From Candidatus Hydrogenedentota bacterium (GTDB lineage Bacteria; Hydrogenedentota; Hydrogenedentia; Hydrogenedentales; SLHB01): DNA of 64,000 nt. Location of the stretch: assembly GCA_029974275.1 (NCBI GenBank), contig JARKSN010000316.1, forward strand, positions 8,125-72,124, read 5' to 3'. A program made the translations under genes and the position numbers. Numbering within the stretch: the stretch's first letter is position 1; each line of letters opens with the position of its first letter. This document shows positions 30,290-46,841 of this stretch, piece after piece. Under the pieces are notes generated by a model. It searched no databases. It saw only the letters and a list, made by a program, of their open reading frames with translations, and had not been told where the DNA came from.

Positions 30290-33200
30290 CTACGGAGAGG
30301 AGACGCGACGGGGACGCTTGCGATCCGAGACAGCCTTGAACAATCCTTCGGAACGCGTGCAGACCCATGTGCACGAAAATGCCGCATCTCCCAAAATGTC
30401 CGCCACGTCCCTCAATGGCTTCCGGCCAAGACGCCACGCATCGTTGCTGACCGCATACATGGAATCCCCCTTTCCTCGGAGAAGTCCGTCCGCTTCCACC
30501 CGAAGAATCCCGCCGTCCGGAGCGGGCGTCTGAAACGACCACGGTTGTTTGCCGAAGCAGAGATCGATGACGGCATGGCCGACTTCACATCGAAACGAGG
30601 TTGCCTCCATCGCCGAGGTTCTCGCCCAGATCGCGGGCCGGCCATCGACATCGTCAAAAACGCGTACTCGCTCCACGCCCCGGATCCTGTTTTTCTCGTC
30701 GCCGATCACGAGCCGCGCATCCCGCAACGCCTGTTTACCATCCTCGTGCCACGGCAACAGGAGGATGCCGCCCAAAGAACCCACGGCTACGTATTCCAAA
30801 GCAGGAAGCATGGCTGCCGAAGTCAACACATCAAACGCCATCGCGCGACAATTTCCGATGTCGATCAGCGCCGCATAATCCGCTGGGGATGCCGTGAACG
30901 GCGCGGACGCGAGATCGCTCCAGGCATACCGAGGCTCCGACGACCATGCCAAGGCCGGAGCTCGCAACACGACCGTATCTCCAACGCGAAAGGCGTTCCC
31001 CGTGGTTTGGGCATCGATCTCTTCCCAAGCCAGGGGGCCGTCTTTCCACGAACTCCGATGAAACCGCCACGAAACCGTTTCGCCGGTCCCCTCCCTCTGA
31101 GCAGTGAAAAAACTTCCGAGCTCCGCTTCCCGGATGCGGTCGATGCGCCGAGGGCAGGGTTTGATGTCGCGAAGAACGAGACGATTCTCCTCGATTGCAT
31201 TCAAACACAGGAAGGAAGAACCGCCATTTTCGGGGTTTTGACTGTGGGTCGCGAGAAGCCACAGTTTCTCCTTTCCCGGAAAGGATTCCAGCGCGCATCC
31301 TGCGTCGGCAGCATCGAACACGAAGCGACCATCCGCCAGCAGGCGATCGTCGGAGATATCCGGAATTCGAGAACGGAGCAGAGGGGCATTCTTCGAAAGC
31401 AGGTCGCGCGGAATCCAGCTTTGGGTTAGTTCGAGGCGGCGTTTTCCCAACATGCCGTCGTCCTGAAACGCAACCATCAGATGCGCCACGCTGCGCAACG
31501 ACGGAGACGCGTCGATGCGTTCCAATCGCCACGGCCCTTCCATGCAAGAGACATGATACTGAGGGAATTCGGCGTCGCCGCCCACAACCACTCCCGTGCG
31601 CTTCCCATTTGCGCGGGCGACATCGCACCGTGTTTGCCCGCGCAACACGGTCAGCGTCATGGGATATTGGCCTGCCTGAGCAAGATCAACCCGCGCCAGC
31701 CCTGCCTGCGTCACCAGGACTCCGGTCCTGTTGTCGTCGAGCAATCCGATGGCATGCGTTATGTCCCACGCAAACCGATCCTCATGCCACCAATCCGGGA
31801 TCGGAAGCGGTTGCGCGCCGGTTTCCTCTGCTTCCACGCACGGCGTGAGAGACATGTCCGTTTTCGAGATGGGACGCCACACGATGTTTCCGACCTGTCC
31901 CTCGACTTGCGGCGTTTCCAGTTTTTCGCTCTGCCACGAAGCATCCGCAGCGGCGGAAGTCTGAAATGTCCATAGCCGATGCTTTTCGCGCGCCGTCAGA
32001 CGCAGCGCCGCCCCCCCGATTAAGCTCGGAACGCAATCCGAAGGCATGTCCGAAGGCGGCGCGAAGCACGCCATGATCGTTGCAGGGGATCTCGGATCGC
32101 GTTTCACGACGCATCGGCCAGGAACGAACACGTACAAACCTTCATTGAAGGAAGCGAACGATGCCCCGCGATCGAAAAAGAACCTGCTGCCGTCAAACAC
32201 GGATTTTCCGTCGAAGGCGCGAAACGACACCTTGCCTTCGCGACATGCGATCCGCAATGCGGGGGTGCTTATCTCCGATTCCGGATCGTGGGAGAGGGGC
32301 GTTTCGGATTTGTCCACTCGTTGGAACGGTCTTGCTTGCAGTCTCCAGAATCCATCTTCCGTTTCCAACGTAATAGGCCCATCCGAAACGTCGCGGCGCA
32401 GCCATGTAACGAGGTCATCTCGGAATTTCCAATTTCCAGCCGTTGTCTGCCGCCAGGAACGCGTCCGGTTCGCTTCATCAAGACGGACGATCCGCAGTTC
32501 CGTTTCCATGCCGGGACGTCGGGTCAAGCGCCACTGCCAGCCGCCGTTCTCCACGACGCTGGTTTGCGCGAGGGCATCCGGACCGGTCAGCAGGGTCAGT
32601 TGGCCATCTTGCCACAAGGCAACGAACCGGCTATTCATTTCTATGGCAACGCGCGCTGGACCTTCCAGACGAACCAGCGATCCGTTGCGGAATCGCTCAT
32701 CAACAACCTGTAACCGGAACGAGTCGGCATCGCGAACCGTCAGCCCCAGATCGGTTATCAACACAAGAGAACCGTCCGAGAGGATTTCCATATCCTTCGT
32801 GCACAAGAACGAAAACGTATCCCCCGACGAAGCCCAGACGGGCCTTTCGGCGCGCGACGCATCGCTCCATGCAATATCGAGTCCATTTTCGGGACCCGCC
32901 CGGAAATCCAGTTGTTCTCCTGCGACATCGACTCTGGCCGCCGTCTTCGTCGAAAGCGTTTCCTCAAACCGCAACGTCCCTTCGGACGCTTCCTCCACGA
33001 GGCGCGTTGTCCGGTCCGCAAACGTAAGCTGGATTCTGTCGTAGGAAAACCATTGCGCCGACACCAGGTCCTTGCCAAGCACGCGTTCTCGCCGGGTTTC
33101 CTCCAGCTCCGTCGAGTTTTTCCCCGGCATCAAGACCGCCAACTCACCTCGTTGAACCGTATATACATTGCCCGATGGCCCCAGCGCGGCGCCGTCGTAG

Positions 33201-36200
33201 ACATCTTCCTCGAACCCTCCAGGCTTGGCGTGAAGGGAGCGCCATGCGCCATGCGCGTTTCGCCAGCAGTGCGTTACGCCCTCCTCGCGAGAGACCTTGA
33301 AAACCTCCGTCTCGAGCAAGAGCCCGTCGCCCGGACGGACCATCGAAACGCCCCCCTTTTCCAGCATTTCGGCCAGCATGGCCCCAGAGACAGGCAATCG
33401 CGAGACAACCGCCCCGGAATCCGCCTGCACCGAGACAATGCCGGTTTGAGATTCGCGCTCGATGACGCCATAGGTCTGGTCTTTGGCGCGAAACCATCCA
33501 TAAAACGTGTATCCGGGAATGGGGGAAAGGAGACGTCGCAACCTGCCCTCAGCCGGATCGTACTGGGCCACGCTTCCCTGAATGTCTATGAAATAAACCT
33601 TGCCGTTGGAGCATTGCGCATATACGGTTTCTCGCGGATCGAATCCTGCCTCATCGAGCGCGCCGCCGCGCGCGTATTCGACGCAGGGAGCTGCAATGTC
33701 GCGCCATTCCATCATCGACAAGCGCCCGTCGGCGACGAACGCCATTCGGACCACGCCCCGATCATCCACCCGAATGCCGCCCTGGCGCACGTTCTCGGGG
33801 ATGGATGTCACCAAGCGTTGATGAAGGTCTTTTCCGACGAAAAGGACATCCCGATCGTCTGCAATGACCATTCCCGAGGAACTCGAAGCGCAGTGCTGCG
33901 GCGTCTGCTTCAGTTCGAGCGGCATTTCGCGCCAAGTGCCGCATGCGTGATCATAAACGCCCAGCGATGGATCGGGACCTACGAACACGACGCTGGAATC
34001 GTCTCGTTGCCAAGCGAAGATGGCTTTTTCCACGAGACGCCGCATGCCGCGGGCAGACCCAAAGCTATCCGCCTTCCATTGTGCGGAGGTTTTCCCTGAA
34101 ATCGGCGTCCAACGGACCAGAGAACCCTCGGCGTTGAGCGCCCAAACCCGCTGACCAGGAGCCTTTGAACCGGCCAGTTGCACCGCTGCCTTGCGCCCTC
34201 CAGGAATCTCGCGCCATGCGTTGTCGTATTGGTGGAACAACCGCCCGTCTTGCAGCCGGGCGAACACGATACCGGCGGCAGAGCATAAATCTGTCACCGG
34301 CGAGGGGGAAGAGCCGGATACGATTCCAAGCTGCGCATATGTCGCCGTATCGTTGTGGTAGGCGATCACGTGGCCGCCAGGGCCCGATGCAAGCATCGCG
34401 TTTTCGCCTGACGGCGCGATGGCGGTCGCACGACTCGGTTCGAAAGGAAAACCGCCCTTCCCAAATACGCCAGTGGAAATTCGGTCCGACACAAGACGCA
34501 GACAGCCGTCCTTGTATAGATAGACAAGGTCTTCGCCGGTCAAGCGAATCTGTTTCACCGTTTCCGGGCTGTCAGGGGAAGCGATCCAGCCGCGATCTTC
34601 GCCCATGTCGCCCGTATTCGAGGCATATTGGATGCACCGATCGCCCTTAAGAAAGGCCACCCGCCACCACTCCGACTTGCTTTCTCCGTCGCCCCGCACG
34701 TAAAGGCACGCATCCCCCAGAAACGAGGAAGAGGAGGCGGCGTCGGCGCCTAGGGTCGGCGCATGCCCTGTGCAAAAACGCCTAGGAAACCCGGTTTTTG
34801 GATAATCGTATCGGTAAATCTCGCCATTTTCCCCTAACCCCAAGAACACGCCATGGCACGAGACGACATGTTTGGCAGGACACTGGTTAAACGGGTCCAA
34901 CGCTCGCCAGTGGCTTTGCCGTTTTGGGTCGTATGCATAGCAATACGCCGCGCCGTTGCTATCCACCGCCAAGACCCCGTCGGGAAGGGCTTCCAATGCC
35001 CTGAATCCGCTTGCCCGCCGCCGCTCGTCAATCGTTCTATTTCCCTCCTGTCCGTGCCACAACGCCATGGATGCATCCTGATACCCGTGCGTATGGGCGT
35101 CATACAAAAACGTCCCGCGGTTCGTCGCGAAAAGCATCCCTTCGTCGACGGTTTTGATGCTCCGGACCTCCAGCGCGCCGACAGCGCCCTCGGGCTTCCA
35201 GCCGTTTCCGGACCTGATCGTCTCGTGTTGGCCTTGCGCCATGGGAGCCCTGGCCAGCCGAACCTCAAGCGCGGATCCGCCGGATGTGGCCTGATAGAGA
35301 CATAGCCCGCCGTCGGGGCTTACCGCCGCCGGCCCTGTGGCGTTCGCGTCGAGAACGACTACGTTTTTCGATAGGTCCTGATTTTCGGAAGCGTTTACAA
35401 GCAGCAATCCGGCATCCGTAGCCACCAGCGCTGCGCTCCCGTGCGACCCAGGAACCGTATCGATGGACGATATATTCGGACATGTCGCCACTCCGATGAG
35501 CCGGCGTTCTGTCGCATCGTAACGGAACAACGCGTTGGCCGTAGCCATCCACGTGGCGCTTTCATCTTGAGCCACCCGCGTGATGCTTGTCACGGCGTCG
35601 AGCTTCGGCGCTGTTTCGGGCTGATGCGTGAAATAGGGCCCCGCCCATCCCGCATCGGGATCGAAGAGCCAAGTGGAACCGTGCGAGTCTTGCGCCCATG
35701 CACTGTGTCCTTCATACGGGGCGTCGAGCTGGACAGCGGCCTGGGTATGCAGTTCGCCGCGATCCAGAAAATTCAGCGTTTGGCGATCTGCGCAACGGAC
35801 GCCTCCTTCCCGAAGCGTAAGCCAGACGCGATCGCGCGTCAGGCCGACATCCGCCATGTCAACCGCCGAGGCCTGGCCTGTTTGCCAGGAACGGTCTCGT
35901 TGCAATGTCCCATCCGAAAGAGGACTAAAGGTGTAGCGCGCCACGCCCGCGCCTCGAAGCGCCACTAGCCATCCCGACGCATCGAACGCATTGCCTTGCA
36001 CCTCCGCCTCCACGCTGCCGACAGAGGCGTGATGGCGCCAGTAGGGATTTTCAGGCGCCCCCAGCCACGAATTCATCGCTATCCCGCTTTTTCCATGCGT
36101 CGCATGGGACCGCTCGATAGCCTGTCCCGACGTCAAGACGAGAAACTCATCCGGTCCTTTGCCATTTGTGACGTCGAGCGTTGGATTTGGGATATGACGC

Positions 36201-36667
36201 TGCCGGACAAGACGGCTTTGCTTGTGGAGGATTGTCAGACCGTCCGATGTTCCCAGCGCCAGCCAATTTCCGTTTGACGCCATGGACGTGAATACCGTGC
36301 GCGTGTAATCCCAGAAGGGGCGTACGTCGCGCACATGGTCAAGGGTGTTCCAGGGAAACATCCACGGCAGCCTGGGGTTCACGGCAAACACCGACATCGC
36401 CGCACCCGAAAACAGGCATGCAGTCAGGAGCCCCCCCAGCGCCCAGACCGATATCGCTCGACGAGCGTAATCGTAGGGAAAGCTCGATATCTTGTAAGCG
36501 TTTGGTCGCAGTGAGGTTTCGGATGCTCCATGCTGCCGCGCGAAGTCTTCCGCCAAAGCATCGACGAAGCGAATCCGCCCCAGAATTCCTTCCTGCCACT
36601 CGCGCGGAACTCGCCGCCGCCACGCGCCCAGCAAACGGCGCAGTGTATTCAGGGCCAGCGCTTGCAT
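30290..36667 (-). CDS. Giant single-pass membrane protein with Reg_prop-like beta-propeller repeats (2125 aa from ATG 36667; 2241 aa if the TTG at 37015 is used)
   Basis: An Arg-rich cytoplasmic N-terminus, then one TM helix (ISVWALGGLLTACLFSGAAMSVFAV), then about 1900 aa of beta-rich repeats (NGNWLALGTSDGLTILH, TWMATANALFRYD, GMLFATNRGTFLYD). No catalytic motifs are evident. The ATG at 36667 overlaps the CHAT-gene stop (TGATG). Confidence 0.7.
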   Translation of the reverse strand: MQALALNTLRRLLGAWRRRVPREWQEGILGRIRFVDALAEDFARQHGASETSLRPNAYKISSFPYDYARRAISVWALGGLLTACLFSGAAMSVFAVNPRLPWMFPWNTLDHVRDVRPFWDYTRTVFTSMASNGNWLALGTSDGLTILHKQSRLVRQRHIPNPTLDVTNGKGPDEFLVLTSGQAIERSHATHGKSGIAMNSWLGAPENPYWRHHASVGSVEAEVQGNAFDASGWLVALRGAGVARYTFSPLSDGTLQRDRSWQTGQASAVDMADVGLTRDRVWLTLREGGVRCADRQTLNFLDRGELHTQAAVQLDAPYEGHSAWAQDSHGSTWLFDPDAGWAGPYFTHQPETAPKLDAVTSITRVAQDESATWMATANALFRYDATERRLIGVATCPNISSIDTVPGSHGSAALVATDAGLLLVNASENQDLSKNVVVLDANATGPAAVSPDGGLCLYQATSGGSALEVRLARAPMAQGQHETIRSGNGWKPEGAVGALEVRSIKTVDEGMLFATNRGTFLYDAHTHGYQDASMALWHGQEGNRTIDERRRASGFRALEALPDGVLAVDSNGAAYCYAYDPKRQSHWRALDPFNQCPAKHVVSCHGVFLGLGENGEIYRYDYPKTGFPRRFCTGHAPTLGADAASSSSFLGDACLYVRGDGESKSEWWRVAFLKGDRCIQYASNTGDMGEDRGWIASPDSPETVKQIRLTGEDLVYLYKDGCLRLVSDRISTGVFGKGGFPFEPSRATAIAPSGENAMLASGPGGHVIAYHNDTATYAQLGIVSGSSPSPVTDLCSAAGIVFARLQDGRLFHQYDNAWREIPGGRKAAVQLAGSKAPGQRVWALNAEGSLVRWTPISGKTSAQWKADSFGSARGMRRLVEKAIFAWQRDDSSVVFVGPDPSLGVYDHACGTWREMPLELKQTPQHCASSSSGMVIADDRDVLFVGKDLHQRLVTSIPENVRQGGIRVDDRGVVRMAFVADGRLSMMEWRDIAAPCVEYARGGALDEAGFDPRETVYAQCSNGKVYFIDIQGSVAQYDPAEGRLRRLLSPIPGYTFYGWFRAKDQTYGVIERESQTGIVSVQADSGAVVSRLPVSGAMLAEMLEKGGVSMVRPGDGLLLETEVFKVSREEGVTHCWRNAHGAWRSLHAKPGGFEEDVYDGAALGPSGNVYTVQRGELAVLMPGKNSTELEETRRERVLGKDLVSAQWFSYDRIQLTFADRTTRLVEEASEGTLRFEETLSTKTAARVDVAGEQLDFRAGPENGLDIAWSDASRAERPVWASSGDTFSFLCTKDMEILSDGSLVLITDLGLTVRDADSFRLQVVDERFRNGSLVRLEGPARVAIEMNSRFVALWQDGQLTLLTGPDALAQTSVVENGGWQWRLTRRPGMETELRIVRLDEANRTRSWRQTTAGNWKFRDDLVTWLRRDVSDGPITLETEDGFWRLQARPFQRVDKSETPLSHDPESEISTPALRIACREGKVSFRAFDGKSVFDGSRFFFDRGASFASFNEGLYVFVPGRCVVKRDPRSPATIMACFAPPSDMPSDCVPSLIGGAALRLTAREKHRLWTFQTSAAADASWQSEKLETPQVEGQVGNIVWRPISKTDMSLTPCVEAEETGAQPLPIPDWWHEDRFAWDITHAIGLLDDNRTGVLVTQAGLARVDLAQAGQYPMTLTVLRGQTRCDVARANGKRTGVVVGGDAEFPQYHVSCMEGPWRLERIDASPSLRSVAHLMVAFQDDGMLGKRRLELTQSWIPRDLLSKNAPLLRSRIPDISDDRLLADGRFVFDAADAGCALESFPGKEKLWLLATHSQNPENGGSSFLCLNAIEENRLVLRDIKPCPRRIDRIREAELGSFFTAQREGTGETVSWRFHRSSWKDGPLAWEEIDAQTTGNAFRVGDTVVLRAPALAWSSEPRYAWSDLASAPFTASPADYAALIDIGNCRAMAFDVLTSAAMLPALEYVAVGSLGGILLLPWHEDGKQALRDARLVIGDEKNRIRGVERVRVFDDVDGRPAIWARTSAMEATSFRCEVGHAVIDLCFGKQPWSFQTPAPDGGILRVEADGLLRGKGDSMYAVSNDAWRLGRKPLRDVADILGDAAFSCTWVCTRSEGLFKAVSDRKRPRRVSSP

Positions 36668-38010
36668 CACATCGTTCGTCTCATGCGACGGAAGTGTCGG
36701 CGGAATGGAGAAATCCGCATCCTCGGCGAGGTCTTCCAAAAAACATCTCCAGACATCCCAGCGGACCTCAGTCGAGAAATCCTCTGTAAGCGCCAGCCAC
36801 ATGGTCGCGCACGAACTTCCCAGCCGCGCCGCCAGTTCCGTCGGTTGCAGGGCGCGCACCAGATGAAACTGGTTGTGTATCGCGCGAACCGCCATTGTTT
36901 CAGGCTGGTTCTCGTGGTGCAGTAAAAGGTGCAGAAAACGTGCGTACGACTCACCGTTTCTGATGGATTCAGGGCCCACCGGGTAAAGAACTCCGCGGCG
37001 AGTTTGACGACGCAATGGATAGCGAGCGGCGGATCCTGGGAATCAAGCGCCGGCGTCTGGGCCTGATGCATCCCCAGCCGGATGTCGATGCTGGCGCCGA
37101 CGAAAAAACGAACCCCGGCGTCGAGGAAGGCATGCGGATATGAGAGCCCCTGCTCTTCGCGGCCTGATGGGTCACGTCCCGCGCTGTAGCAACAGCACGC
37201 GTACACCAGTTCCGGGACGATGCGTCTTTGGTTGGGTGCGGTGGATGATGTCTGGTCTGCGCGCAGAAAACGCCGGAGATCGGAAATCGACAGCACGTGT
37301 CCCGGGTGCAACAGCCAACCTCTTCCCTTGTCCGACGGGTCGGACAAATGACCCAAGAAAAAAACGGCGCGATGCTTGCGAAATATCTCGATCAAGAGGT
37401 CGAAGCGCCCCGCATCGTCGCCTTTGAGCCGTTGAAATTCCTCGCCGCTGAAGGTGTCCACAATCAAGTAAGGTTGCAACTGCCTCTGGAGCGATTTGGC
37501 CTGAGACTCGAACAATTCGTTTCCGTCCCCTGTCGCGTAGAGAATGGCAAGAGTTCTTTCGGGCGGCCGGTCGACAGGCGGACACGCCAAGTGGTCTATG
37601 ATCCGGTAGACAGGGCCTAGGGTGTCGAGCCATTTCTCGCCTGCGGGGAGCAGTTCTGGCAGCAGCTCACAGGATTGATAGGTGAGGATCAGCGTCAATG
37701 GAAGAGGCGGCGTGGAGGACTGCATGGCTTGGGTCACCAGATCGAAGCCCTTTTCCCATCCGATAAAACTAAGCAAATCGGCGCCTGCCGCCACAGGATA
37801 CGGTCGTAGCGGATCGTCGAGAGCCTCCTTCATGGATGCGTGCATTCGCCCGATCGCGCCGTGCAGGAGAGAATCCCAACGCTTTCCGGGATCAACGATG
37901 GGGTGCGATAGGGGAGCCGATGTCTTGTCCGCCGCTGAAAAGATAACCAGAAGGGGGGATTGCCCTTCTTCGGGATAATGAAGCGAGAATGTTGCGGATG
38001 CCTCGTTCAT
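36667..38010 (-). CDS. CHAT-domain (caspase-like) protease-family protein, cytoplasmic
   Basis: Catalytic-dyad-like motifs AVFFLGHLSDP (His) and PELVYACCCYSAGRD (Cys), with the spacing typical of the CHAT/caspase fold. No signal peptide. ATGA overlap with the upstream gene. Confidence 0.7.
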   Translation of the reverse strand: MNEASATFSLHYPEEGQSPLLVIFSAADKTSAPLSHPIVDPGKRWDSLLHGAIGRMHASMKEALDDPLRPYPVAAGADLLSFIGWEKGFDLVTQAMQSSTPPLPLTLILTYQSCELLPELLPAGEKWLDTLGPVYRIIDHLACPPVDRPPERTLAILYATGDGNELFESQAKSLQRQLQPYLIVDTFSGEEFQRLKGDDAGRFDLLIEIFRKHRAVFFLGHLSDPSDKGRGWLLHPGHVLSISDLRRFLRADQTSSTAPNQRRIVPELVYACCCYSAGRDPSGREEQGLSYPHAFLDAGVRFFVGASIDIRLGMHQAQTPALDSQDPPLAIHCVVKLAAEFFTRWALNPSETVSRTHVFCTFYCTTRTSLKQWRFARYTTSFIWCAPCNRRNWRRGWEVRARPCGWRLQRISRLRSAGMSGDVFWKTSPRMRISPFRRHFRRMRRTM

Positions 38011-38930
38011 GCGGGGGTGTTCTCGCCAGCGTCCGGCGCTGTGCCCGCCACTACGGGCAATTCGATCGTCACCTCGCGCAACTCGCCCGAACGGGTCGCA
38101 CCGGATAGAAATAGACGCAACGGTTCGGTCGTCGGCGGTGCAATCCGGAAATCGATCCCTCCTTCCCTGCGCAGGTCTCGAGCGCCCGTGGCAGGACGCT
38201 CGGAAGTTCCCAGCGCCACCGAGAGGGGAAACGAGGTTTCCCCGACGAGGTCACAATGGCATACCCAATAGACGGCCTCTCCGTCCTTGAGATATTCCTC
38301 CCGCAGAGTGATCCGGATCGTCACGCCAAAATCCTGGACGGGTGCATCCAGAAGAATTCGGTCCGGATACTCCGTCAAAGCAGGCACAGGTTGAATCCCC
38401 GTGCAGGTCCAGATGCCTACGCGCAGTCCTGGCTCAAACGCGGTTTCCAGCATTCGGATCCCGGCATGCGCGGCCTCCGATACGTGTTCCGCAAGCCGCC
38501 ACTTCTTGCCACGCAACACCAGCATTTGAGACGGGAAGGCGCCGACGCACGAGTGGGCGAAGTCCAGCCATTCGCGGCGTTGCTGGTTCATGTCGAGCAG
38601 GAGTGCCTTGGTCGCTTCTGGGAAAGGCTCGATGCCTTGGGTATGCGTTGCAACCGGTTGCTCGGTTTCCTCCTTCCAAAATTCAAGCGCGGCAAGGATG
38701 CTGTCAAGACCGGCTTGCGCGACATGGGGATCTGTTTCAAGATTCTTGATCACGGTAAGAAAACGGTCGAATTCATCGGCGGCCCGTTTCCGGAAAAAAG
38801 ACACGGCCTCCCGAATATCCGCTTCGGGCACGTTTTCTCCCGCAAGATAGTCAAGAATCATGTTTCGAGCCCTCTGTGCCGCGTCAATATCAGCTTGAGC
38901 GGGCACGATAGGCCGACTATTGGAATCCAT
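38007..38930 (-). CDS. Hypothetical protein (307 aa), coupled to the CHAT gene
   Basis: The ATG at 38930 is confirmed. The stop overlaps the CHAT start (ATGA at 38010-38007). Acidic, helical N-terminus; no known motifs. Confidence 0.6.
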   Translation of the reverse strand: MDSNSRPIVPAQADIDAAQRARNMILDYLAGENVPEADIREAVSFFRKRAADEFDRFLTVIKNLETDPHVAQAGLDSILAALEFWKEETEQPVATHTQGIEPFPEATKALLLDMNQQRREWLDFAHSCVGAFPSQMLVLRGKKWRLAEHVSEAAHAGIRMLETAFEPGLRVGIWTCTGIQPVPALTEYPDRILLDAPVQDFGVTIRITLREEYLKDGEAVYWVCHCDLVGETSFPLSVALGTSERPATGARDLRREGGIDFRIAPPTTEPLRLFLSGATRSGELREVTIELPVVAGTAPDAGENTPA

Positions 38931-38938
38931 GTTGTCTC

Positions 38939-40600
38939 CTATTTCATCTGTTTGAGAAGCTTGAGCAGGTGATCACGCTCGTCACCCAAGGCGGGATTCA
39001 GGGTGTCCGCGGTGTTCTCAGAACTCCTTTTCCGCTCTTGATGCAGGTACCAGCCCGGGGAAACGAAAAAGTCAATGCGCCAATCAGGCATCTTTGCTTG
39101 CGTGTGGACACGCGTTAGTTTTTGGTCGCATTGATCCGCGCGGAACCGTTCCAGGGCCTCGCACAAGCGGGCCTTGTCGCGCGGCTCGGTGTTTGGGCTG
39201 ATCAGCCCTGCCGATCGGGCCGAATCGAGCATTGCGCGCACGCGCTGACATGCTTTCTCCGGCTCAAGCTTCGTGTCAACGAGCACGCGAGCGAGAAATG
39301 CCCAAGCCAGAGTCTCTTCGTCACGCGCGGCCCTGCCCAACGCGGCCAGATGGCGCAGTGTGGGAAGGTCCGTCTTGTCCCATCCGGTTTCTTGGGCGAC
39401 TTTTTCCAGCACGGCCATATCGCCTGGAGGCTCTGGAGATGTCGCCCTGAGGCCAGCGACCAGAGCCGTCATGCGTTGCCGCAGTCTGCGCCGCGGCGTG
39501 TAAAGGTCTGATGGGCTGATGGTTATATTAGGCGCTGATTCCAATTCGCGCTCCATTTCCTCGTCGGAGATGTCCCCGTTTTTCCACATATGCAAGACAA
39601 GATCTTTCCAGATAACTTTCACTCGGCTCTGCGCCTTGACCTGGAAAAAGGTTTCCACCAACTGGTAGCGCTCGCGAATCATCGTCAGGCGCTCCATATC
39701 GTCTTCCGGCTCCGGCGCGGGAGGAGCAGAGGGCGGCTGGGGCGTGTTGCAGTTGCTGCGAAGGATGTTTTCCGCCACGGCGGCAATCCAATGGGGCAAC
39801 GGCCCTGCGTATCGGTAGCCCCCGTCGGGATCCTCCCAGTGTTCGAGCACCCGCAGGACGGCTTCCGAGACGGCAGCATCCGCGGTCCATTCTCCGGCTC
39901 CGCATGACCATCGCGCTTGGAGAGTCTTCGATATTTTCCCGAGTAAGCTTGCTAACTCCTGTTCGGCCTTCTGGATAGACATCGTTTGGCATGTCCTGGT
40001 AGCCAGAAAACGAACAACGGGATACCAAGTGAGGAGGTTGTCCGCGATTTGTTCGATCTGAGGTTGAGCGTAGGTAGCGATGAGGGAAGGGCGGAACTTG
40101 CGACGGATATATTCCCGAAGTTCCGGAATCAATGCGGGTGGAGCAGAGGCAAGAACAAGCTGATCGAAACGGCGAAGAAGTTTTTCGTCGGGGACGCCGC
40201 GATTGTTCCAAAACGCCCGCACCCGATCCATGAACGATCTTGGATTGTGTTGCAGCGTTCCCAAGCGGGTGGGCGCAATGTCCTTCTTAAACGCGTCGGC
40301 CATCGCAACGCACTCATTGTAGTGAGAGTCATTCTGGACGAGTTCTTCAAGTGCGAGGCCGGCATTCGCGGCAAGCGCTTCGATCAGCTCCAGCAGCGGA
40401 ATGTTTTGTCTGGCGCAGTTTTCGATGGCTCTAGGCGATGGCGTCGAGGAAGACAGGCGGGTCTGGGGGGCGGAGAGTTCTGTGGCGACTATTTTGGCAA
40501 GCAAGGTCGCGTCAAGCTGCGTTCCCAGGACCTTCTCACATATTTTATGAATATCATTGCAATGCGGCGCGTCAGACAAAGCAGGACTTTCTTGTTCCAT
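38939..40600 (-). CDS. Hypothetical alpha-helical protein (553 aa), first gene of the CHAT operon
   Basis: A long ORF preceded by an AT-rich gap (40601-40700). No catalytic motifs recognized. Confidence 0.6.
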   Translation of the reverse strand: MEQESPALSDAPHCNDIHKICEKVLGTQLDATLLAKIVATELSAPQTRLSSSTPSPRAIENCARQNIPLLELIEALAANAGLALEELVQNDSHYNECVAMADAFKKDIAPTRLGTLQHNPRSFMDRVRAFWNNRGVPDEKLLRRFDQLVLASAPPALIPELREYIRRKFRPSLIATYAQPQIEQIADNLLTWYPVVRFLATRTCQTMSIQKAEQELASLLGKISKTLQARWSCGAGEWTADAAVSEAVLRVLEHWEDPDGGYRYAGPLPHWIAAVAENILRSNCNTPQPPSAPPAPEPEDDMERLTMIRERYQLVETFFQVKAQSRVKVIWKDLVLHMWKNGDISDEEMERELESAPNITISPSDLYTPRRRLRQRMTALVAGLRATSPEPPGDMAVLEKVAQETGWDKTDLPTLRHLAALGRAARDEETLAWAFLARVLVDTKLEPEKACQRVRAMLDSARSAGLISPNTEPRDKARLCEALERFRADQCDQKLTRVHTQAKMPDWRIDFFVSPGWYLHQERKRSSENTADTLNPALGDERDHLLKLLKQMK

Positions 40601-40809
40601 GAATTTTCCAATGCAGATATATGAATAAAACCAATGATATGGGGTCCCCCAAAGAAGAATACATATCCCAAACTACGATGCTAGCATACGCTTCTGTTCA
40701 GGATCAATGGTGGTGGAACGCTCAGGACCATTGCCCGAGGTTTGACCCCACCGAAAAGCGCGATCGTGAGGCAGGCTTGAACGAAGGGAAAGGGGGAATG
40801 AGGGCAATC

Positions 40810-42034: not shown

Positions 42035-42820
42035 ATGCCGGAATATATCGGGACGCACATGGATGCGGGATGTTTGTGGATGACGCTGCAGCGCCCCAAG
42101 GTGAATGCGCTCAACGTGGAACTTCTGCGGGAAATTCGGGAGACGGTTCAGGCTGCCGAAGCCGATGCGGCGATTCGGTGCATGGTCATTCATGGCGGCG
42201 CAGGGAAATTTTTCAGCGGCGGCGCGGATATCCCATCGATCCAGGACGCGCTGGGGAGCGATCCGTTCGCGAAAGGCGCGTTGCTTTCAGAGGGACAGCA
42301 GACGATGAATGTCATCGAAGGCTGCGGCAAGCCTGTTATCGCGGCGGTGAATGGCGCGGCCCTAGGCGGAGGATGCGAGTTGGCGTTGGCGTGCCATCTG
42401 CGCCTTGCTTCGACGGAGGCGACGTTTGGCCAGCCCGAAATCAATCTCGGCATCATGCCGGGCTGGGGCGCAACGTACCGGCTCGCGAGGCAGATCGGTC
42501 ATGCGAGGGCATTGGATTGGATGCTGACGGGCCGTATGGTCGACGCGCAAGAGGCCTACGAGGCGGGCCTGCTCTGTAAACTCGTGAAGGCCGAGGAACT
42601 GGAGGCGGCCGCGCAAGAGCTTGCGGGCACGGTGAGCCGAAAGTCGCCGCTGGCAATGCGGGCGATTCTGGAAACCGTCCAAAATCAGGCCTTGCATCCT
42701 GCCGATGCCAGCGAGCTGGAGACTCGCGGGTTTCAACGATGCATGGCAAGCCACGATGCCGTTGAAGGCGTTTCGGCCTTTCTGGATAAGCGGACGCCGC
42801 ATTTTACGGGAGAATCATGA
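42035..42820 (+). CDS. Enoyl-CoA hydratase/isomerase (crotonase family)
   Basis: IHGGAGKFFSGGADI oxyanion-hole motif and GAALGGGCELALACHLRLAS. Confidence 0.85.
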   Translation: MPEYIGTHMDAGCLWMTLQRPKVNALNVELLREIRETVQAAEADAAIRCMVIHGGAGKFFSGGADIPSIQDALGSDPFAKGALLSEGQQTMNVIEGCGKPVIAAVNGAALGGGCELALACHLRLASTEATFGQPEINLGIMPGWGATYRLARQIGHARALDWMLTGRMVDAQEAYEAGLLCKLVKAEELEAAAQELAGTVSRKSPLAMRAILETVQNQALHPADASELETRGFQRCMASHDAVEGVSAFLDKRTPHFTGES

Positions 42821-45276
42821 CAGTGAGGCGTTTAGGAACGTTTGCATGCGCGATAGGAGCGGCGGCGTTGCTGTCCGTATCCGCACAGGCGCTAGAAGCG
42901 GGCGCGGCAAAGGTGGACATTACGCCCGGCCTTGGCACGCCGCTGAATGGATATGGGGCGCGGCTGGGACAAGGGGCGGCGGCGGTGCACGACCCTATCA
43001 CGGCCCGGGCGCTCTACCTGGAGGACGGCCAGACGCGCCTGCTGCTGGTTGCGGCCGATCTGTGCGTCATCAATCGCGAATTGCGCGATCGCGCGCTGGA
43101 ATTGGCGCCGCGCGATGTGCCGCCTGAAAACATTTTTCTTGTCGCGACGCACAATCACAGCGGGACGGGGGGGATGGTGCGCCCCCTGATCTTTCGATCG
43201 ATTTCGGGCCGCTTCATGCCGGAGGTGTTGGAGGCCGCCGCCCAAAAGTTCGCGGAGGTTATGCGCGCGGCCATCGGGGCTCGCCAACGTGCGGCCATCG
43301 GCTATGCGACGTTCCAGCAGAACGATCTGTCGCGCAACCGCCGCGTGCCAGACGGTCCTGTGGACACGCAGGTGGGCGTGATTCGCGTTGAAAACGCCGA
43401 CGGACGTCCCATCGCCGTCATGGCCAATTTCGCCGCGCATCCCACGAACGTTCCCGAAGAAGACGCCCTCTCTGTTTCCGCCGATTATTGCGGTTTCTAT
43501 TATACGGAACTCGAGGCGTTGTTGGGCGAAAGCGCGATCGCCCTGTTCACCAATGGCGCGGAAGGCGATCAAAAATGCGCCGCGCCGCATGGCGAAGATG
43601 GCTGGGCCAAAACCGAGGCGGTGGGACGGTTGCTTGCCCAACGCGTAAACGAGGCCGCCCAGAAAATTCGGTGCGACGAAAGCGCGCTGCGGGTCGCCTC
43701 CGCGCAGGTCACTCTTCCGAAAACCCTCGCGGATTCGTTTCTCCCGCAGGACACGACGCTGAAGACCATCGAAATCAATGATTTGCTGCTGACGTTTTTC
43801 CCGGGGGAGCCGTGCGTCGACATTGGGCTCGAATTGCGGAAACGGACGTTGGCGCGCGGATACGGGGCTCAATTTTCCGTGGGACTTTCGAATGATCATC
43901 TCATGTATTTCGTGCCTCGTTCGATCTACAGCACGACGAGCTACGAATCTTCCATGAACTTCTATGGACCGGGCATCGAAGACTTTTTTTACCGCGAATT
44001 CAGCAAGCTCATGAGCCGAGGAACGCCGGAGCCCGACCCGGAGCGGCCTGCAGAGCCGGAGATCGCAGCATTGCCCGGATCGCGTCGCATAACATTGACA
44101 GGTTCCGCTTACGCGATTGGATACATGCGCGGAATGGCGTTTGCCGAGGAAATTCGCGCGCATTATCGGGACCGCGTTTGGGCCCGGGTTGAGTCCAAGG
44201 CATGGACCCCCAAGACGGGCTTGTGGAATCTGGCCCCTCCGTTCCTCAATCAGACGCCGTTGGCGTTGTCCTTTCTCGCTTTCAACGCGAGGCCTTTGCT
44301 GAAAGGGCTTCCAGACGACTTTCTGCGCGAGGTTGAAGGCATGGCCGATGCCTGCGCGTTGCCCTTCGATGCGGTTTGGCTTTCACAGTGCGCGCCAGTT
44401 TTCGAGGTGCAGGCGCGGTCTGAAGACATCTACCGCCAGCCCTACTGTACGATGTTCGCGTTGACGGGCAAACGTACGGAACGGGATGGCGTTCTGATCG
44501 GTCGCAATTTCGATTGGCCTGCGGCGGAGGCGATCGTCGTGGAGGATGTGAAGCCTGCGACAGGGCGTCGGTTCGTGGCGATTGGTTTTCCGTGGACGGC
44601 AGGGGTGTTTACAGGAATGAATGACGCGGGCCTTGTGCTATGCGCCGAGAGGGTGGAAGCCCTCGGAACGCCTTCTTTGACCGGTCCGCCGATCGAAATG
44701 GCGTTGCGTCAGACCTTGCAGACCGCGGGAACGCTTCCGGAAGCCTTGGCGCAATTGCAGGCGGCTTCGCATCTGCGCGGGTTTCATGCGCTCGTGGCCG
44801 ACGCGGCGTCGTTGGATGCGCGCATCATCGAATACGGCGCGACGCAAGTTGTCCGCGCGCCTGTCGAGGGTCTGCTGCTTGGAATCGATCCGGCGAGCCC
44901 CAACGCGGACGACTCCGGCAGCAAACGCTACGCGCGGGCGGCAGAGCTTATCGGCGACAAACAAGCGCTTGCTGCGCCGCGCGTTCAAGAAATCCTTTCG
45001 GACGGCGATCCCGCGCAAAACGGAACGGCGCGCATCTTTAACGAGCAGACGCGCTGCTCCGTGGTTTTTCAGCCCAGGATTCGCCAGATCCGCGTCGCGT
45101 TTCCGGATGAGAGCGGCAAACCGGGGCCTTACACGGTGGTGCGCCTTGGCGAAGTCGACGACGTGCAGCCCCAAGCAGCGACTGGAAGCAGTCGCGACGC
45201 CGCCAAGATCGCGACGCAGCAAAACCGCCGGGCTTCTTCCAGCGGAACGCGTTCTAGCCGCAAGGAGGGGTCGTGA
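42817..45276 (+). CDS. Secreted fusion protein: neutral/alkaline-ceramidase-like N-terminal domain plus Ntn-hydrolase (acid-ceramidase/NAAA/choloylglycine-hydrolase-like) C-terminal domain
   Basis: Signal peptide. The N-terminal domain has KVDITPGLGTPLNGYGARLG...HDPITARALYL...VAADL and ATHNHSGTGG (compare the neutral ceramidase G..DITP / THTHSGPGG). The C-terminal domain has YCTMFALTGKRTERDGVLIGRNFDW (compare ASAH1 [21 protein letters not shown]). ATGA overlap with the crotonase gene. Confidence 0.6.
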   Translation: MTVRRLGTFACAIGAAALLSVSAQALEAGAAKVDITPGLGTPLNGYGARLGQGAAAVHDPITARALYLEDGQTRLLLVAADLCVINRELRDRALELAPRDVPPENIFLVATHNHSGTGGMVRPLIFRSISGRFMPEVLEAAAQKFAEVMRAAIGARQRAAIGYATFQQNDLSRNRRVPDGPVDTQVGVIRVENADGRPIAVMANFAAHPTNVPEEDALSVSADYCGFYYTELEALLGESAIALFTNGAEGDQKCAAPHGEDGWAKTEAVGRLLAQRVNEAAQKIRCDESALRVASAQVTLPKTLADSFLPQDTTLKTIEINDLLLTFFPGEPCVDIGLELRKRTLARGYGAQFSVGLSNDHLMYFVPRSIYSTTSYESSMNFYGPGIEDFFYREFSKLMSRGTPEPDPERPAEPEIAALPGSRRITLTGSAYAIGYMRGMAFAEEIRAHYRDRVWARVESKAWTPKTGLWNLAPPFLNQTPLALSFLAFNARPLLKGLPDDFLREVEGMADACALPFDAVWLSQCAPVFEVQARSEDIYRQPYCTMFALTGKRTERDGVLIGRNFDWPAAEAIVVEDVKPATGRRFVAIGFPWTAGVFTGMNDAGLVLCAERVEALGTPSLTGPPIEMALRQTLQTAGTLPEALAQLQAASHLRGFHALVADAASLDARIIEYGATQVVRAPVEGLLLGIDPASPNADDSGSKRYARAAELIGDKQALAAPRVQEILSDGDPAQNGTARIFNEQTRCSVVFQPRIRQIRVAFPDESGKPGPYTVVRLGEVDDVQPQAATGSSRDAAKIATQQNRRASSSGTRSSRKEGS

Positions 45277-46841
45277 GCGAGGTTGTTCGGGTGTTTACGC
45301 CAGGCGATGCGCGACGCAGACGGCGACGTGGGCTCTATCGCCGCATGGCGCTGGCGGTGGGCGTTCTTGTGATTCTCTATTTGATGGTCAGTTCATGGGA
45401 CCGTCGTTCGTATAGCCAATTCGTTCCAAAAGACCAAAAATATGGCGTGGTCATCACCGATCTCCTGAGACATCGCGACGCGTTGGCGCAATCCGCAGTG
45501 TGGCGGGCGTTGCCGCCCTCTATCGGCGCGAACGGCATTCCAGCCTTACTGACATCAAGCACAGGGCTTCCAGAGTGGGTGCTTAACAATCTGATTGGCG
45601 GACCGTGCTACATCACGGGTCAAGACATCGTCGCCTTTCGCGACGTCGTAATCATCACGCGCATGACGATGATTGGCAAGCAACTGGAGCGGTTAAGCGC
45701 CTTCGCTTCTGCGATCGAGAACGATCCCGCGGGCGGGCTCCGCCTGCGCCATGTACGGGGAACCAGCGTTTATTTTGCCGTGCGCGGACGTCTTTTCCTG
45801 CTGTCACGATCCCGCGACGCGCTGATCCGTTCCCTGACGCTCCGGCCCGAGGATGTCGTCTCGGATGATCCGTTGCTGACCCAGACCGCCAAGTCCGGCA
45901 CCGAACACGTGCGCGGCATGGTGATATTATCGCCGGACGACCCCCTCGGCAAGCACATCCGTTCGCTACGTTTCGCCTTGCGCATCGACGCCGCCGCGGC
46001 GCACCTGCGCTGCCGCGTGAAGCTAGATGAGAGTCTTGAGGCCTCTCTCTCTCCCCTGTTGACCGATCTTGGCCCTAAGCCGTTGATCGCGCCGCCTGAC
46101 GGCATGATCGGGCTTTCGGCCAATCTCGGACATCCCATCAAAGACGTGTGGGCGTCGCTCGCTCCGGCCCTTCCCTACCCGATTTTTGCCGCGCAACAGT
46201 GGGAAGCCTGGCAGACCGTCTCGCCCGGGCGACAACCGGGATGGTTGCACATGCTGACGGGGTTGCTGGGCCTGGCGGGCCCAGGGTTCGCCCTGAGCGT
46301 GAGCGGTGTCGACCAGAACGAAATGCTGCCATTGCCGTTGCTCGTCGGACTATTCGAGGCCCCAAACGACGCCATCCAGAAGGCTGCCGCGTCGTGGCCG
46401 CCGTTGCCGGATACGGCAAAACCGTGGGATAGCATTCCCCGCTATGAGACCGACCACAAATGGATTCGTCTGCCGTTGATAGGCGGCCCGTCGTTGGAAC
46501 CTGTGGCGGCGCCGTATGGCGATGCACACTTATTGTTCAGTTCAAGCAGGACTGTGGCCGAAGCGATGTTGACCCAGCCCCAACCCCCTCAGCCCCTGGC
46601 CACGCCGGGCAATCTGTGCCTTCAGATCAAGCCGCTCGATTGCGTGCAAGCTCTCGCCGATGCCGGCCAGCAATTGGCGGACAGCAATCTGTTGCGCGGA
46701 TATGCGCCGGATTCGTTTAGGGCCGACGCGGCGCGGTGGATCGAACAAGCTCAAAACGTCCGGTCGCTTTCGTTTTTGCTGACGCGCGACAACGGCGAAC
46801 TTGCCGCTCAGGCTGATCTATTCTGCACAACCGGCGACTAG
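45273..46841 (+). CDS. Membrane-anchored hypothetical protein (N-terminal TM anchor)
   Basis: N-terminal RRRRRRGLYRRMALAVGVLVILYLMV anchor. A GTGA overlap with the preceding gene. Confidence 0.55.
   Translation: MSEVVRVFTPGDARRRRRRGLYRRMALAVGVLVILYLMVSSWDRRSYSQFVPKDQKYGVVITDLLRHRDALAQSAVWRALPPSIGANGIPALLTSSTGLPEWVLNNLIGGPCYITGQDIVAFRDVVIITRMTMIGKQLERLSAFASAIENDPAGGLRLRHVRGTSVYFAVRGRLFLLSRSRDALIRSLTLRPEDVVSDDPLLTQTAKSGTEHVRGMVILSPDDPLGKHIRSLRFALRIDAAAAHLRCRVKLDESLEASLSPLLTDLGPKPLIAPPDGMIGLSANLGHPIKDVWASLAPALPYPIFAAQQWEAWQTVSPGRQPGWLHMLTGLLGLAGPGFALSVSGVDQNEMLPLPLLVGLFEAPNDAIQKAAASWPPLPDTAKPWDSIPRYETDHKWIRLPLIGGPSLEPVAAPYGDAHLLFSSSRTVAEAMLTQPQPPQPLATPGNLCLQIKPLDCVQALADAGQQLADSNLLRGYAPDSFRADAARWIEQAQNVRSLSFLLTRDNGELAAQADLFCTTGD

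Follow-up and report, generated by a model that had tools for sequence, protein, structure and literature searches.

Two kinds of described bacterial system come closest to the locus considered here. In Myxococcus xanthus, DdvS, a sigma factor of the extracytoplasmic function (ECF) type, is paired with DdvA, a transmembrane anti-sigma factor with a periplasmic TPR-CHAT region, and the pair regulates an island of genes for CRISPR and for an antiphage signaling system based on cyclic oligonucleotides (CBASS) (PMC11506125). The MoxR-vWA ternary conflict systems, of the FtsH and beta-propeller types, were described from planctomycetes and related phyla (Kaur, Burroughs, Iyer, Aravind 2020, PMC7159879). 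These combine a divergent vWA protein with an extra classical AAA+ protein, unclassifiable accessory proteins and, as the third component, a membrane-anchored propeller protein (PMC7159879). The vWA domains of the FtsH- and propeller-type subtypes are highly divergent, and the systems can carry caspase-like effectors and inactive kinases (PMC7159879). The locus treated here lies in a 64,000-nucleotide (nt) stretch of DNA from a Candidatus Hydrogenedentota bacterium (GCA_029974275.1, contig JARKSN010000316.1), referred to below as the window, and comprises four consecutive open reading frames (ORFs) on the minus strand, numbered here g1, g2, g3 and g14. An earlier note on this DNA had read them as a self-contained system of two unknown proteins, a CHAT protease and a giant membrane-anchored propeller protein. 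Comparison with other contigs indicates that the locus is probably the internally deleted remnant of a larger conserved array and not a new four-gene system. The observed basis for this reading is orthology, gene order, the point at which g3 is truncated, the junk tail that follows it, the absence of g4-g13 from the window and further deletions in close relatives.

The intact array is found on metagenome contigs from other organisms and consists of 14-15 co-directional genes. It opens with g1, an extended ECF-sigma-like protein, and g2, a CHCC-type anti-sigma-like protein, followed by g3, a protein of ~1200 aa that joins a predicted separase/CHAT-fold domain to a probable pseudokinase and an AAA+ ATPase. 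Two further AAA+ proteins, g4 and g6, flank the unannotated g5 (~550 aa), and beyond the two small genes g7 and g8 lie g9, a MoxR protein matching Pfam bpMoxR (PF20030), the unannotated g10-g12, the membrane protein g13 and the giant single-pass membrane protein g14. L010, with the g3 relative P0015, and L003, with the giant homologue P0002, share an identical 6808-nt overlap and derive from one contig of 59,386 nt, which places g1 through g14 on one contig and one strand. In order, this 59-kb contig holds g1 (470 aa), g2 (283 aa), a PIG-L gene, g3 (1184 aa), g4-g13 and g14 (2090 aa). The genes upstream of P0002 in L003 are orthologues, in the same order, of the downstream genes of the other arrays, with matches of E 1e-174 to 1e-191 for g6 and 1e-136 to 1e-151 for the MoxR protein. 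The order g3-g11 recurs in L006, L008 and L011, the start of the array recurs in L009, and bpMoxR is found in L003/L010, L006, L008 and L011.

Against the 59-kb contig, the window aligns through g1 (E 3e-49), residues 1-346 of g3 (4e-49) and g14 (1e-227), and through nothing else; a tblastn search with g4-g13 against the entire 64-kb window found no trace of them. The interval missing from the window measures ~15.7 kb on the 59-kb contig, and what every intact array conserves, namely three AAA+ modules, a pseudokinase and a MoxR protein, is absent. A check of co-conservation, proposed in the earlier note, therefore has a divided outcome: the four genes do occur together elsewhere, yet there they form the opening three and the closing member of an array of 14-15 genes, separated by ~16 kb of other genes. 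The claim that they form a self-contained system does not survive, with g3 truncated and an interval of ~16 kb missing. On the parent array PADLOC gives resemblances at the level of domains only, the kinase to PD-T4-6/mad6/MkoA and the AAA domain to IetA/TRIP13. Downstream of P0002, positions 17007-24317 of L003 encode a 509-aa unknown protein, a 1240-aa ResIII/Helicase_C protein, a 99-aa protein and, on the opposite strand, a ParB_N/HTH_ParB protein, a neighborhood that may be of mobile-element or defense type.

The point at which the window leaves the array falls within g3. An exhaustive phmmer search with the three smaller window proteins concatenated gave 116 hits in three groups, in one of which ~50 proteins are homologous to residues 1-340 of the g3 ORF (447 aa; 36667-38010, minus strand). 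This family is mostly metagenomic and includes the planctomycete Candidatus Scalindua. A word-indexed homologue search with the 447-aa ORF returned the query itself only, a scan of the genome collection with an alignment of the g3 domain returned only a 2.7-kb Scalindua rubra contig, and no relatives of the g3-domain or giant families were found among viral contigs. Thirty-nine of the relatives are 1100-1600 aa long and carry the domain at their N-terminus. An exception to this placement is P0044, in which the domain sits behind an extra Metallophos domain; this 1607-aa protein (L011, 5927-10750) thus places a calcineurin-like phosphoesterase before the CHAT-like, kinase and AAA modules. In the four long relatives scanned with Pfam, the domain is followed by a protein kinase and, at the C-terminus, a classical AAA domain. 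Because 15 long relatives (e.g., P0009, residues ~520-600) have HGN[LV] where the catalytic loop of a kinase would carry HRD, this module is probably a catalytically dead pseudokinase.

A profile of these relatives matches the window protein with 283.7 bits, and the alignment ends at residue 354 (...FFTRWALNPSETVS), position 329 of 444 in the profile. The stretch that the family conserves beyond this point (EHLY.AK..CGF.LLT.LYQIY) appears in none of the three window frames. The remainder of the ORF, 93 codons and a stop (36667-36948, minus strand), is composed of 23% Arg, 6% Trp and 5% Cys with a net charge of +22, whereas the giant frame that overlaps it out of frame, open from 37015, has an ordinary amino-acid composition. 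Such a tail bears the signature of out-of-frame translation in GC-rich DNA and is therefore read as junk; codon-position GC over the overlap (36667-37015) did not discriminate the coding frame. Since the end of homology and the onset of junk coincide at residue 354, the window protein departs from its family there, and the g3 remnant is confined to codons 1-354 (36949-38010, minus strand). To judge from the alignment, the 447-aa ORF is not a natural unit, and the earlier description of a 447-aa CHAT protein has to be shortened to the ~354 residues over which family homology holds. The deletion junction itself lies at about 36913-36950, at the 5' end of the out-of-frame tail.

The same junction, and further deletions, are seen in other assemblies and close relatives of the window. 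The Logan assembly L002 is 100% identical to the window over 5107 nt and has the same junction. In L001 (GCA_022706165.1), a blastn comparison shows that a 20-bp segment (36879-36898 of the window, minus strand) is absent at position 2366, with ACA microhomology, a loss that fuses the g3 frame to the giant frame in one ORF; apart from this, L001 differs from the window only by 36 consecutive N, not by an indel. The L001 allele predicts a single membrane-anchored CHAT-giant fusion protein. A larger segment of 7.35 kb (33049-40397, minus strand; blastn) is absent from L004, a metagenome contig of ~98% DNA identity that is syntenic with the window on both flanks. This removes g2 and the g3 remnant completely, together with the greater part of g1 and the opening ~1206 codons of the giant gene, so that codon 66 of g1 now runs, out of frame, into the rear half of that gene. 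The L004 junction shows TTCC microhomology, and because a microhomology this short cannot arise from k-mer assembly, the deletion is taken as real. Over the 3' half of the giant gene, the window and L004 differ by 49 non-synonymous and 39 synonymous changes, a ratio of non-synonymous to synonymous rates (dN/dS) of 0.41, without stops or indels; the same ratio is 0.02-0.27 for eight flanking genes. The giant gene is under relaxed selection, yet remains below neutrality.

Decay of the array is also seen outside this lineage. On the unrelated contig L012 (1126-3999), from an organism of 67.5% GC, g1 and g2 are frameshifted and a 323-aa g3 N-domain is followed by unrelated cell-division genes, so that the remnant stands beside an FtsW-MurG-MurC-FtsQ-FtsZ cluster. 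The name of this contig suggests a long-read assembly, and some of the frameshifts may thus be sequencing errors. In L013 the ORF of the g3 N-domain ends at residue 337, 11 nt before the end of the contig. Whether nested or independent, the deletions in the window, L001 and L004 make up a small natural series of array decay.

The g3 domain was called a CHAT protease in the earlier note from the motifs FFLGHLSD and YACCCYSAG, both of which are found in the 447-aa ORF. This assignment holds at the level of the fold and not at that of the Pfam family. The Pfam CHAT model (PF12770) does not match the 447-aa ORF at E<=10, nor does it match four full-length g3 relatives, and phmmer searches of PDB sequences with the CHAT-like and 553-aa proteins were empty. 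When a structural model of the domain is compared with known structures, the highest scores are for separase (15.2; human separase 14.3 and 14.1) and the CHAT domain of Csx29 (15.1), followed by TPR-CHAT (13.7 and 12.6), gingipains (~11), the CHAT domain of DdvA (10.9) and SAVED-CHAT (10.9). The separase and CHAT matches align ~260 residues and those to gingipains and DdvA 208-232, whereas generic flavodoxin-like folds score <=10 with only ~150 residues aligned. The modeled domain thus has the caspase-hemoglobinase fold of the separase/CHAT type. His221 and Cys273/Cys274 are conserved at >=90% over 25 sequences, and the model puts them at the ends of strands 215-219 and 268-271, which suggests the caspase-type placement of a His...Cys dyad after strands 3 and 4. 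On the strength of the model, the g3 domain is a CHAT domain at fold level, in a family that the Pfam CHAT model misses. In the window it is complete up to the last core helix. The domain is a putative protease, and its predicted location is cytoplasmic, in agreement with the earlier note, since it has no transmembrane segment. Unlike separase and the Csx29/TPR-CHAT "craspase" of type III-E CRISPR systems, with which it shares only 11-16% identity, the g3 domain goes unmatched by Pfam CHAT, has no TPR repeats and stands in no CRISPR context.

The two proteins that precede g3, left as unknown in the earlier note, can now be read as sigma-like and anti-sigma-like. The g1 product (553 aa; 38939-40600, minus strand) belongs to a family of >50 proteins of ~450-670 aa recovered by the exhaustive phmmer search. 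A profile of 29 members matches the ECF sigma factors CnrH (E 0.0027), sigmaE, SigW and SigH in the PDB over sigma region 2, and ECF sigma factors account for 10 of the 14 PDB matches listed, at E 0.003-0.03. Pfam Sigma70_r2 matches five of the 29 family members (best 1.5e-8), although the window protein alone has no Pfam hit. The region 2-like segment spans about aa 215-290. Neither the window protein nor any other member of the family has a hit to Sigma70_r4 (region 4), and the PDB matches cover region 2 only; a segment reading RRRLRQR is suggestive of region 4 by eye only. The protein is therefore best described as a putative, divergent and extended ECF-sigma-like protein, orthologues of which head the arrays of L008, L006 and L010.

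The g2 product (307 aa; 38007-38930, minus strand) has three phmmer hits only. One of these, P0077 (968 aa), is a single chain that joins 553-like and 307-like parts. In L008 the gene that follows g1 encodes a homologue of the g2 product (E 9e-9), and in L006 the N-terminal part of a g2-CHAT fusion is homologous to it as well (E 2e-7). The window g2 product consists of an N-terminal helical part with a degenerate CHCC zinc motif and a C-terminal beta-rich part. The motif C...H-x3-C-x2-C is present in six of six g2 relatives, whereas the window protein reads THTQGIEPF at this site, keeping His96 alone and losing the three Cys. Pfam zf-HC2 matches three of seven family members weakly (best E 0.019) and does not match the window protein, and a search of the PDB with the g2 family profile returned no anti-sigma structure. 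The anti-sigma reading follows from the motif, the place of the gene beside a sigma-like gene, the P0077 fusion and the L006 fusion to a Pfam CHAT domain. On these grounds g2 would be an anti-sigma-like protein of the CHCC family whose zinc ligands have been lost, and its binding to a partner sigma factor is putative, as suggested by the adjacency of g1 and g2 in L008, L010 and L013 and by the fusion in P0077. The earlier guess at a sigma/anti-sigma relay fits g1 and g2, and stands to that extent.

Two observations on L006 and L007 touch the same protein families. The g2-CHAT fusion of L006 (2565-4562, minus strand; the same as L007 6379-8376) is a 665-aa protein in which a g2 module is joined to a genuine Pfam CHAT domain, and its gene is oriented divergently from g3 and lies beside the sigma-like gene; its architecture is near that of DdvA, with no obvious transmembrane segment annotated. 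Just upstream of the array, L007 (55-4604) encodes a canonical ECF sigma factor with regions 2 and 4 (229 aa), an anti-sigma protein with a weak zf-HC2 match (257 aa) and a 1040-aa TPR-CHAT protein, a second and conventional sigma/anti-sigma/CHAT set beside the array.

The giant ORF (30290-37015, minus strand) encodes 2241 aa when counted from its first TTG; from the ATG at 36667 (30290-36667, minus strand) it encodes 2125 aa, and its true start is uncertain. The protein has a short Arg-rich N-terminus, a single transmembrane helix and an ectodomain of ~2000 aa. The helix (36380-36457, minus strand; AISVWALGGLLTACLFSGAAMSVFAV) gives a maximum of 1.76 in a Kyte-Doolittle scan with a 19-residue window, and the same scan finds this one strong segment in the giant ORF and zero in the g1, g2 and g3 ORF products, so that the single N-terminal helix noted earlier is confirmed by hydropathy. 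Its sole homologue in a word-indexed search is P0002 (2090 aa, 27% identity, 92% coverage), the N-terminal hydrophobic segment of which aligns with the helix. A scan of the genome collection with the giant alignment found nothing.

For the earlier description of the ectodomain as Reg_prop-like propeller repeats there is a hint but no confirmation. The giant protein has no Pfam match at E<=10, Reg_prop (PF07494) included, self-BLAST found no internal repeats, and profile libraries detected no TPR repeats. An AlphaFold2 model of residues 96-760, built with two sequences in the alignment, has a predicted local distance difference test (pLDDT) score of 38.7 and is almost all beta. With this poor model, all 50 of the Foldseek matches listed are beta-propeller proteins, the best being the periplasmic sensor domains of BT4663 and BT4673 (E~1e-9, template modeling score ~0.2), and P0002 itself has a weak, sub-threshold beta-propeller hit. 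The ectodomain is thus likely, as far as such a model can indicate, to be rich in beta-propellers. Like these two Bacteroides hybrid two-component proteins, with their Reg_prop double propellers, the giant protein places its ectodomain after an N-terminal transmembrane helix and, by prediction, outside the cytoplasmic membrane. Unlike them, it is three times larger, leaves Reg_prop unmatched and lacks histidine kinase, receiver and helix-turn-helix domains: neither it nor P0002 carries HisKA/HATPase_c, receiver or HTH domains in Pfam or NCBIfam. No kinase or other housekeeping family was matched to the giant protein, and the hybrid two-component sensor that the earlier note had named as a housekeeping alternative finds no support.

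Upstream of the ATG at 36667, the giant frame stays open for 348 nt (~116 codons) with a normal protein composition, and this stretch has no match in the parent arrays. It may derive from the C-terminal end of an upstream gene that has since been lost, or it may extend the giant protein at its N-terminus. A derivation from g5 was considered on a phmmer match of E 0.001, but the g5 profile gave negative scores and the match was dropped as chance.

Set against the DdvS/DdvA system, the locus is alike in that a sigma/anti-sigma pair is genetically coupled to a CHAT fold of the separase/craspase type (PMC11506125; PDB 8rot), in the CHCC-type motif of the g2 relatives and in the fusion of g2 to a Pfam CHAT domain in L006. 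It differs from DdvA in that the window g2 has lost its Cys ligands and has no transmembrane helix, and in that the CHAT-like domain is on a separate cytoplasmic protein, which in relatives continues into the pseudokinase and AAA+ modules. The g1 product is two to three times longer than an ECF sigma factor, and no CBASS or CRISPR genes are nearby.

The parent array shares several features with the ternary conflict systems of Kaur et al., namely bpMoxR, classical AAA+ proteins whose AAA domain lies in the C-terminal half, several unclassifiable helical and mixed proteins and a membrane-anchored component that is probably propeller-rich. The giant protein may be comparable to the third component of the propeller subtype, which has a variable N-terminus, a transmembrane segment and beta-propeller regions: it has a transmembrane helix and, from the poor model, propeller-like Foldseek matches, and no TPR repeats were detected in it. 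However, no vWA domain is detectable, and in particular searches of g10, the gene after MoxR, with Pfam (E<=10) and with a profile against the PDB found none, although in the parent array a divergent one may have escaped detection; Ubl, E1, E2 and JAB genes are also absent. The sigma/anti-sigma pair and the fusion of CHAT-like, pseudokinase and AAA modules are, conversely, absent from the published description (PMC7159879), and the window itself has no MoxR, AAA+ or vWA gene. The window locus lacks the defining features of each of the systems compared here, and is read as a degenerate variant.

In the most economical account, a lineage that inherited the full array would have lost its ~15.7-kb middle. 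The breakpoints would lie close behind the CHAT-like domain of g3 on the left and a short way upstream of g14 on the right, and the 354-codon stump of g3 would thereafter read out of frame for 93 codons to a chance stop that overlaps the ATG of the giant gene (TGATG). In the intact array, the giant envelope protein together with the AAA+ and MoxR proteins could sense, transmit or gate an extracytoplasmic or invader-related cue. This cue would switch on the CHAT-like protease, which may act on the anti-sigma-like protein or another target and so free the sigma-like factor. Such a mechanism is suggested by analogy, on the pattern of DdvS/DdvA (PMC11506125) and of the ATPase-gated conflict systems that Kaur et al. 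describe (PMC7159879). Without the ATPase core, the circuit left in the window is probably non-functional or at best residual.

Several points weigh against the loss of function and of genes that a deletion remnant implies. All four ORFs remain open, the giant one over 6.4 kb, its dN/dS (0.41) lies significantly below 1 and thus indicates some purifying selection over much of the divergence between the window and L004, and the CHAT-like domain is essentially whole with its dyad intact. The g3 ORFs of L012 and L013 end near the same boundary, and an N-domain-only form could be tolerated or even selected. The ATGA and TGATG start/stop couplings look operon-like. As only one giant homologue is known, the position of g14 as always last is drawn from one contig; outside the window, the genome could still contain g4-g13; and the direction of change, deletion here and not expansion elsewhere, is drawn from parsimony.

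Many of these same points would be expected if the locus had arisen by deletion and its four remaining genes nonetheless worked as a minimal envelope-sensing proteolytic relay, near the idea of the earlier note, which is unlikely but deserves some weight. The open ORFs and tight gene overlaps, the intact H221/C273-274 dyad in a fold complete to the last core helix, the giant dN/dS of 0.41 (<1), the N-domain-only ORFs that end near one boundary in L012 and L013, and the in-frame CHAT-giant fusion of L001 are all consistent with such a relay. It would, however, have to accommodate a junk tail beyond residue 354 and a g2 without zinc ligands, as well as the loss of most of the locus from the 98%-identical L004, the breakage of g1 and g2 themselves in L012, and the absence of the AAA+ modules, pseudokinase and MoxR of all intact arrays; moreover, protein and contig searches showed the arrangement in no second genome. 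It is distinctly improbable that the parent array is an undescribed envelope-spanning signaling or conflict machine of which the window preserves a naturally minimized, still functional derivative. If that were true, a protease domain with its regulators and a sensor would suffice.

An ancestral, self-contained four-gene system, as first read from the window, is very improbable and is already largely refuted by the truncation point and the 59-kb contig. The contiguity and couplings of the ORFs and the CHAT-type fold agree with it, and all four families do co-occur on one foreign contig, but there ten or eleven conserved genes (~16 kb) intervene. In thirty-nine relatives the CHAT-like domain is the N-terminal part of a protein of 1100-1600 aa, followed by kinase and AAA domains in the four examined with Pfam, homology breaks abruptly, the g3 and giant ORFs overlap out of frame, and the layout was found nowhere else in searches of 5.8 billion and 1.8 billion proteins and of contig collections. 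Hardly credible, too, is an assembly chimera at the g3/giant junction or programmed -1 frameshifting that yields a ~2500-aa protein. The source is metagenome-assembled, and the giant frame, -1 relative to that of g3, is open and protein-like for 348 nt upstream of the ATG at 36667; but the junction recurs in L002 and, with a 20-bp difference, in GCA_022706165.1, and its occurrence in independent assemblies makes an artifact unlikely. A fusion of this kind is not seen in the relatives. The idea of programmed -1 frameshifting was rejected because the overlap nowhere contains an in-register X XXY YYZ slippery heptamer.

The remaining features of the locus agree with the earlier description of its layout. 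The four consecutive minus-strand ORFs were all found where they had been placed, with g1 and g2 separated by an 8-nt gap, an ATGA overlap of the g2 and g3 ORFs at 38010-38007 and a TGATG at 36669-36665 in which the stop of the g3 ORF overlaps the in-frame ATG of the giant ORF. Upstream of g1 lies an intergenic leader (40601-40809, minus strand) with an AT-rich proximal 100 nt. This segment (40601-40700), singled out earlier as AT-rich, has a GC content of 38% against 60% for the whole window, near the lowest-GC 100-nt stretch of all 64 kb, which begins at 40540; 100-nt windows with <=40% GC make up 0.1% of the window. It is a possible promoter region, although no sigma-70 consensus promoter was found in the leader. 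At 40660-40720 (minus strand), GAAC, 18 nt and CGTA (tcctGAACagaagcgtatgctagcatCGTAgttt) loosely resemble ECF-type -35/-10 elements, an observation made by eye and without statistical support.

On one side the locus is flanked by genes for GyrA, tRNA-Arg, a TPR protein, a BadF-type ATPase, a DUF1573 protein and a UDPGP-family protein, and on the other by those for a GFO/IDH/MocA oxidoreductase, an enoyl-CoA hydratase, a ceramidase-like protein and a photolyase. The GyrA protein clusters at >=90% identity with proteins named Candidatus Hydrogenedentota. The flanks are ordinary housekeeping genes and no defense island; no CBASS or CRISPR genes are among the annotated flanks, and Pfam, NCBIfam and PADLOC (PADLOC-DB 2.0) gave no useful match to the four window proteins at E up to 10. 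The suggestion of a defense module thus finds no backing in this context, with housekeeping flanks and no system-level match in PADLOC. Unrelated to the array locus, the plus strand at 42817-45276 encodes an 819-aa protein in which a neutral-ceramidase N-terminal domain is joined to an AAT (acyl-CoA:6-APA acyltransferase-like) domain, an unusual fusion, and the adjoining gene (45273-46841, plus strand) is a 522-aa ORF without a Pfam match.

The reading of these four genes as a module is, on the interpretation favored here, an error caused by the deletion. The finding has nevertheless exposed a family of separase/CHAT-fold domains invisible to Pfam CHAT, a long ECF-sigma-like family with CHCC partners, and the 14-15-gene array in which they stand together. 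This parent array, poorly described so far, extends both the computationally described, MoxR-centered conflict systems and regulation of the DdvS/DdvA type, and is more interesting, and a better experimental target, than the locus in the window.

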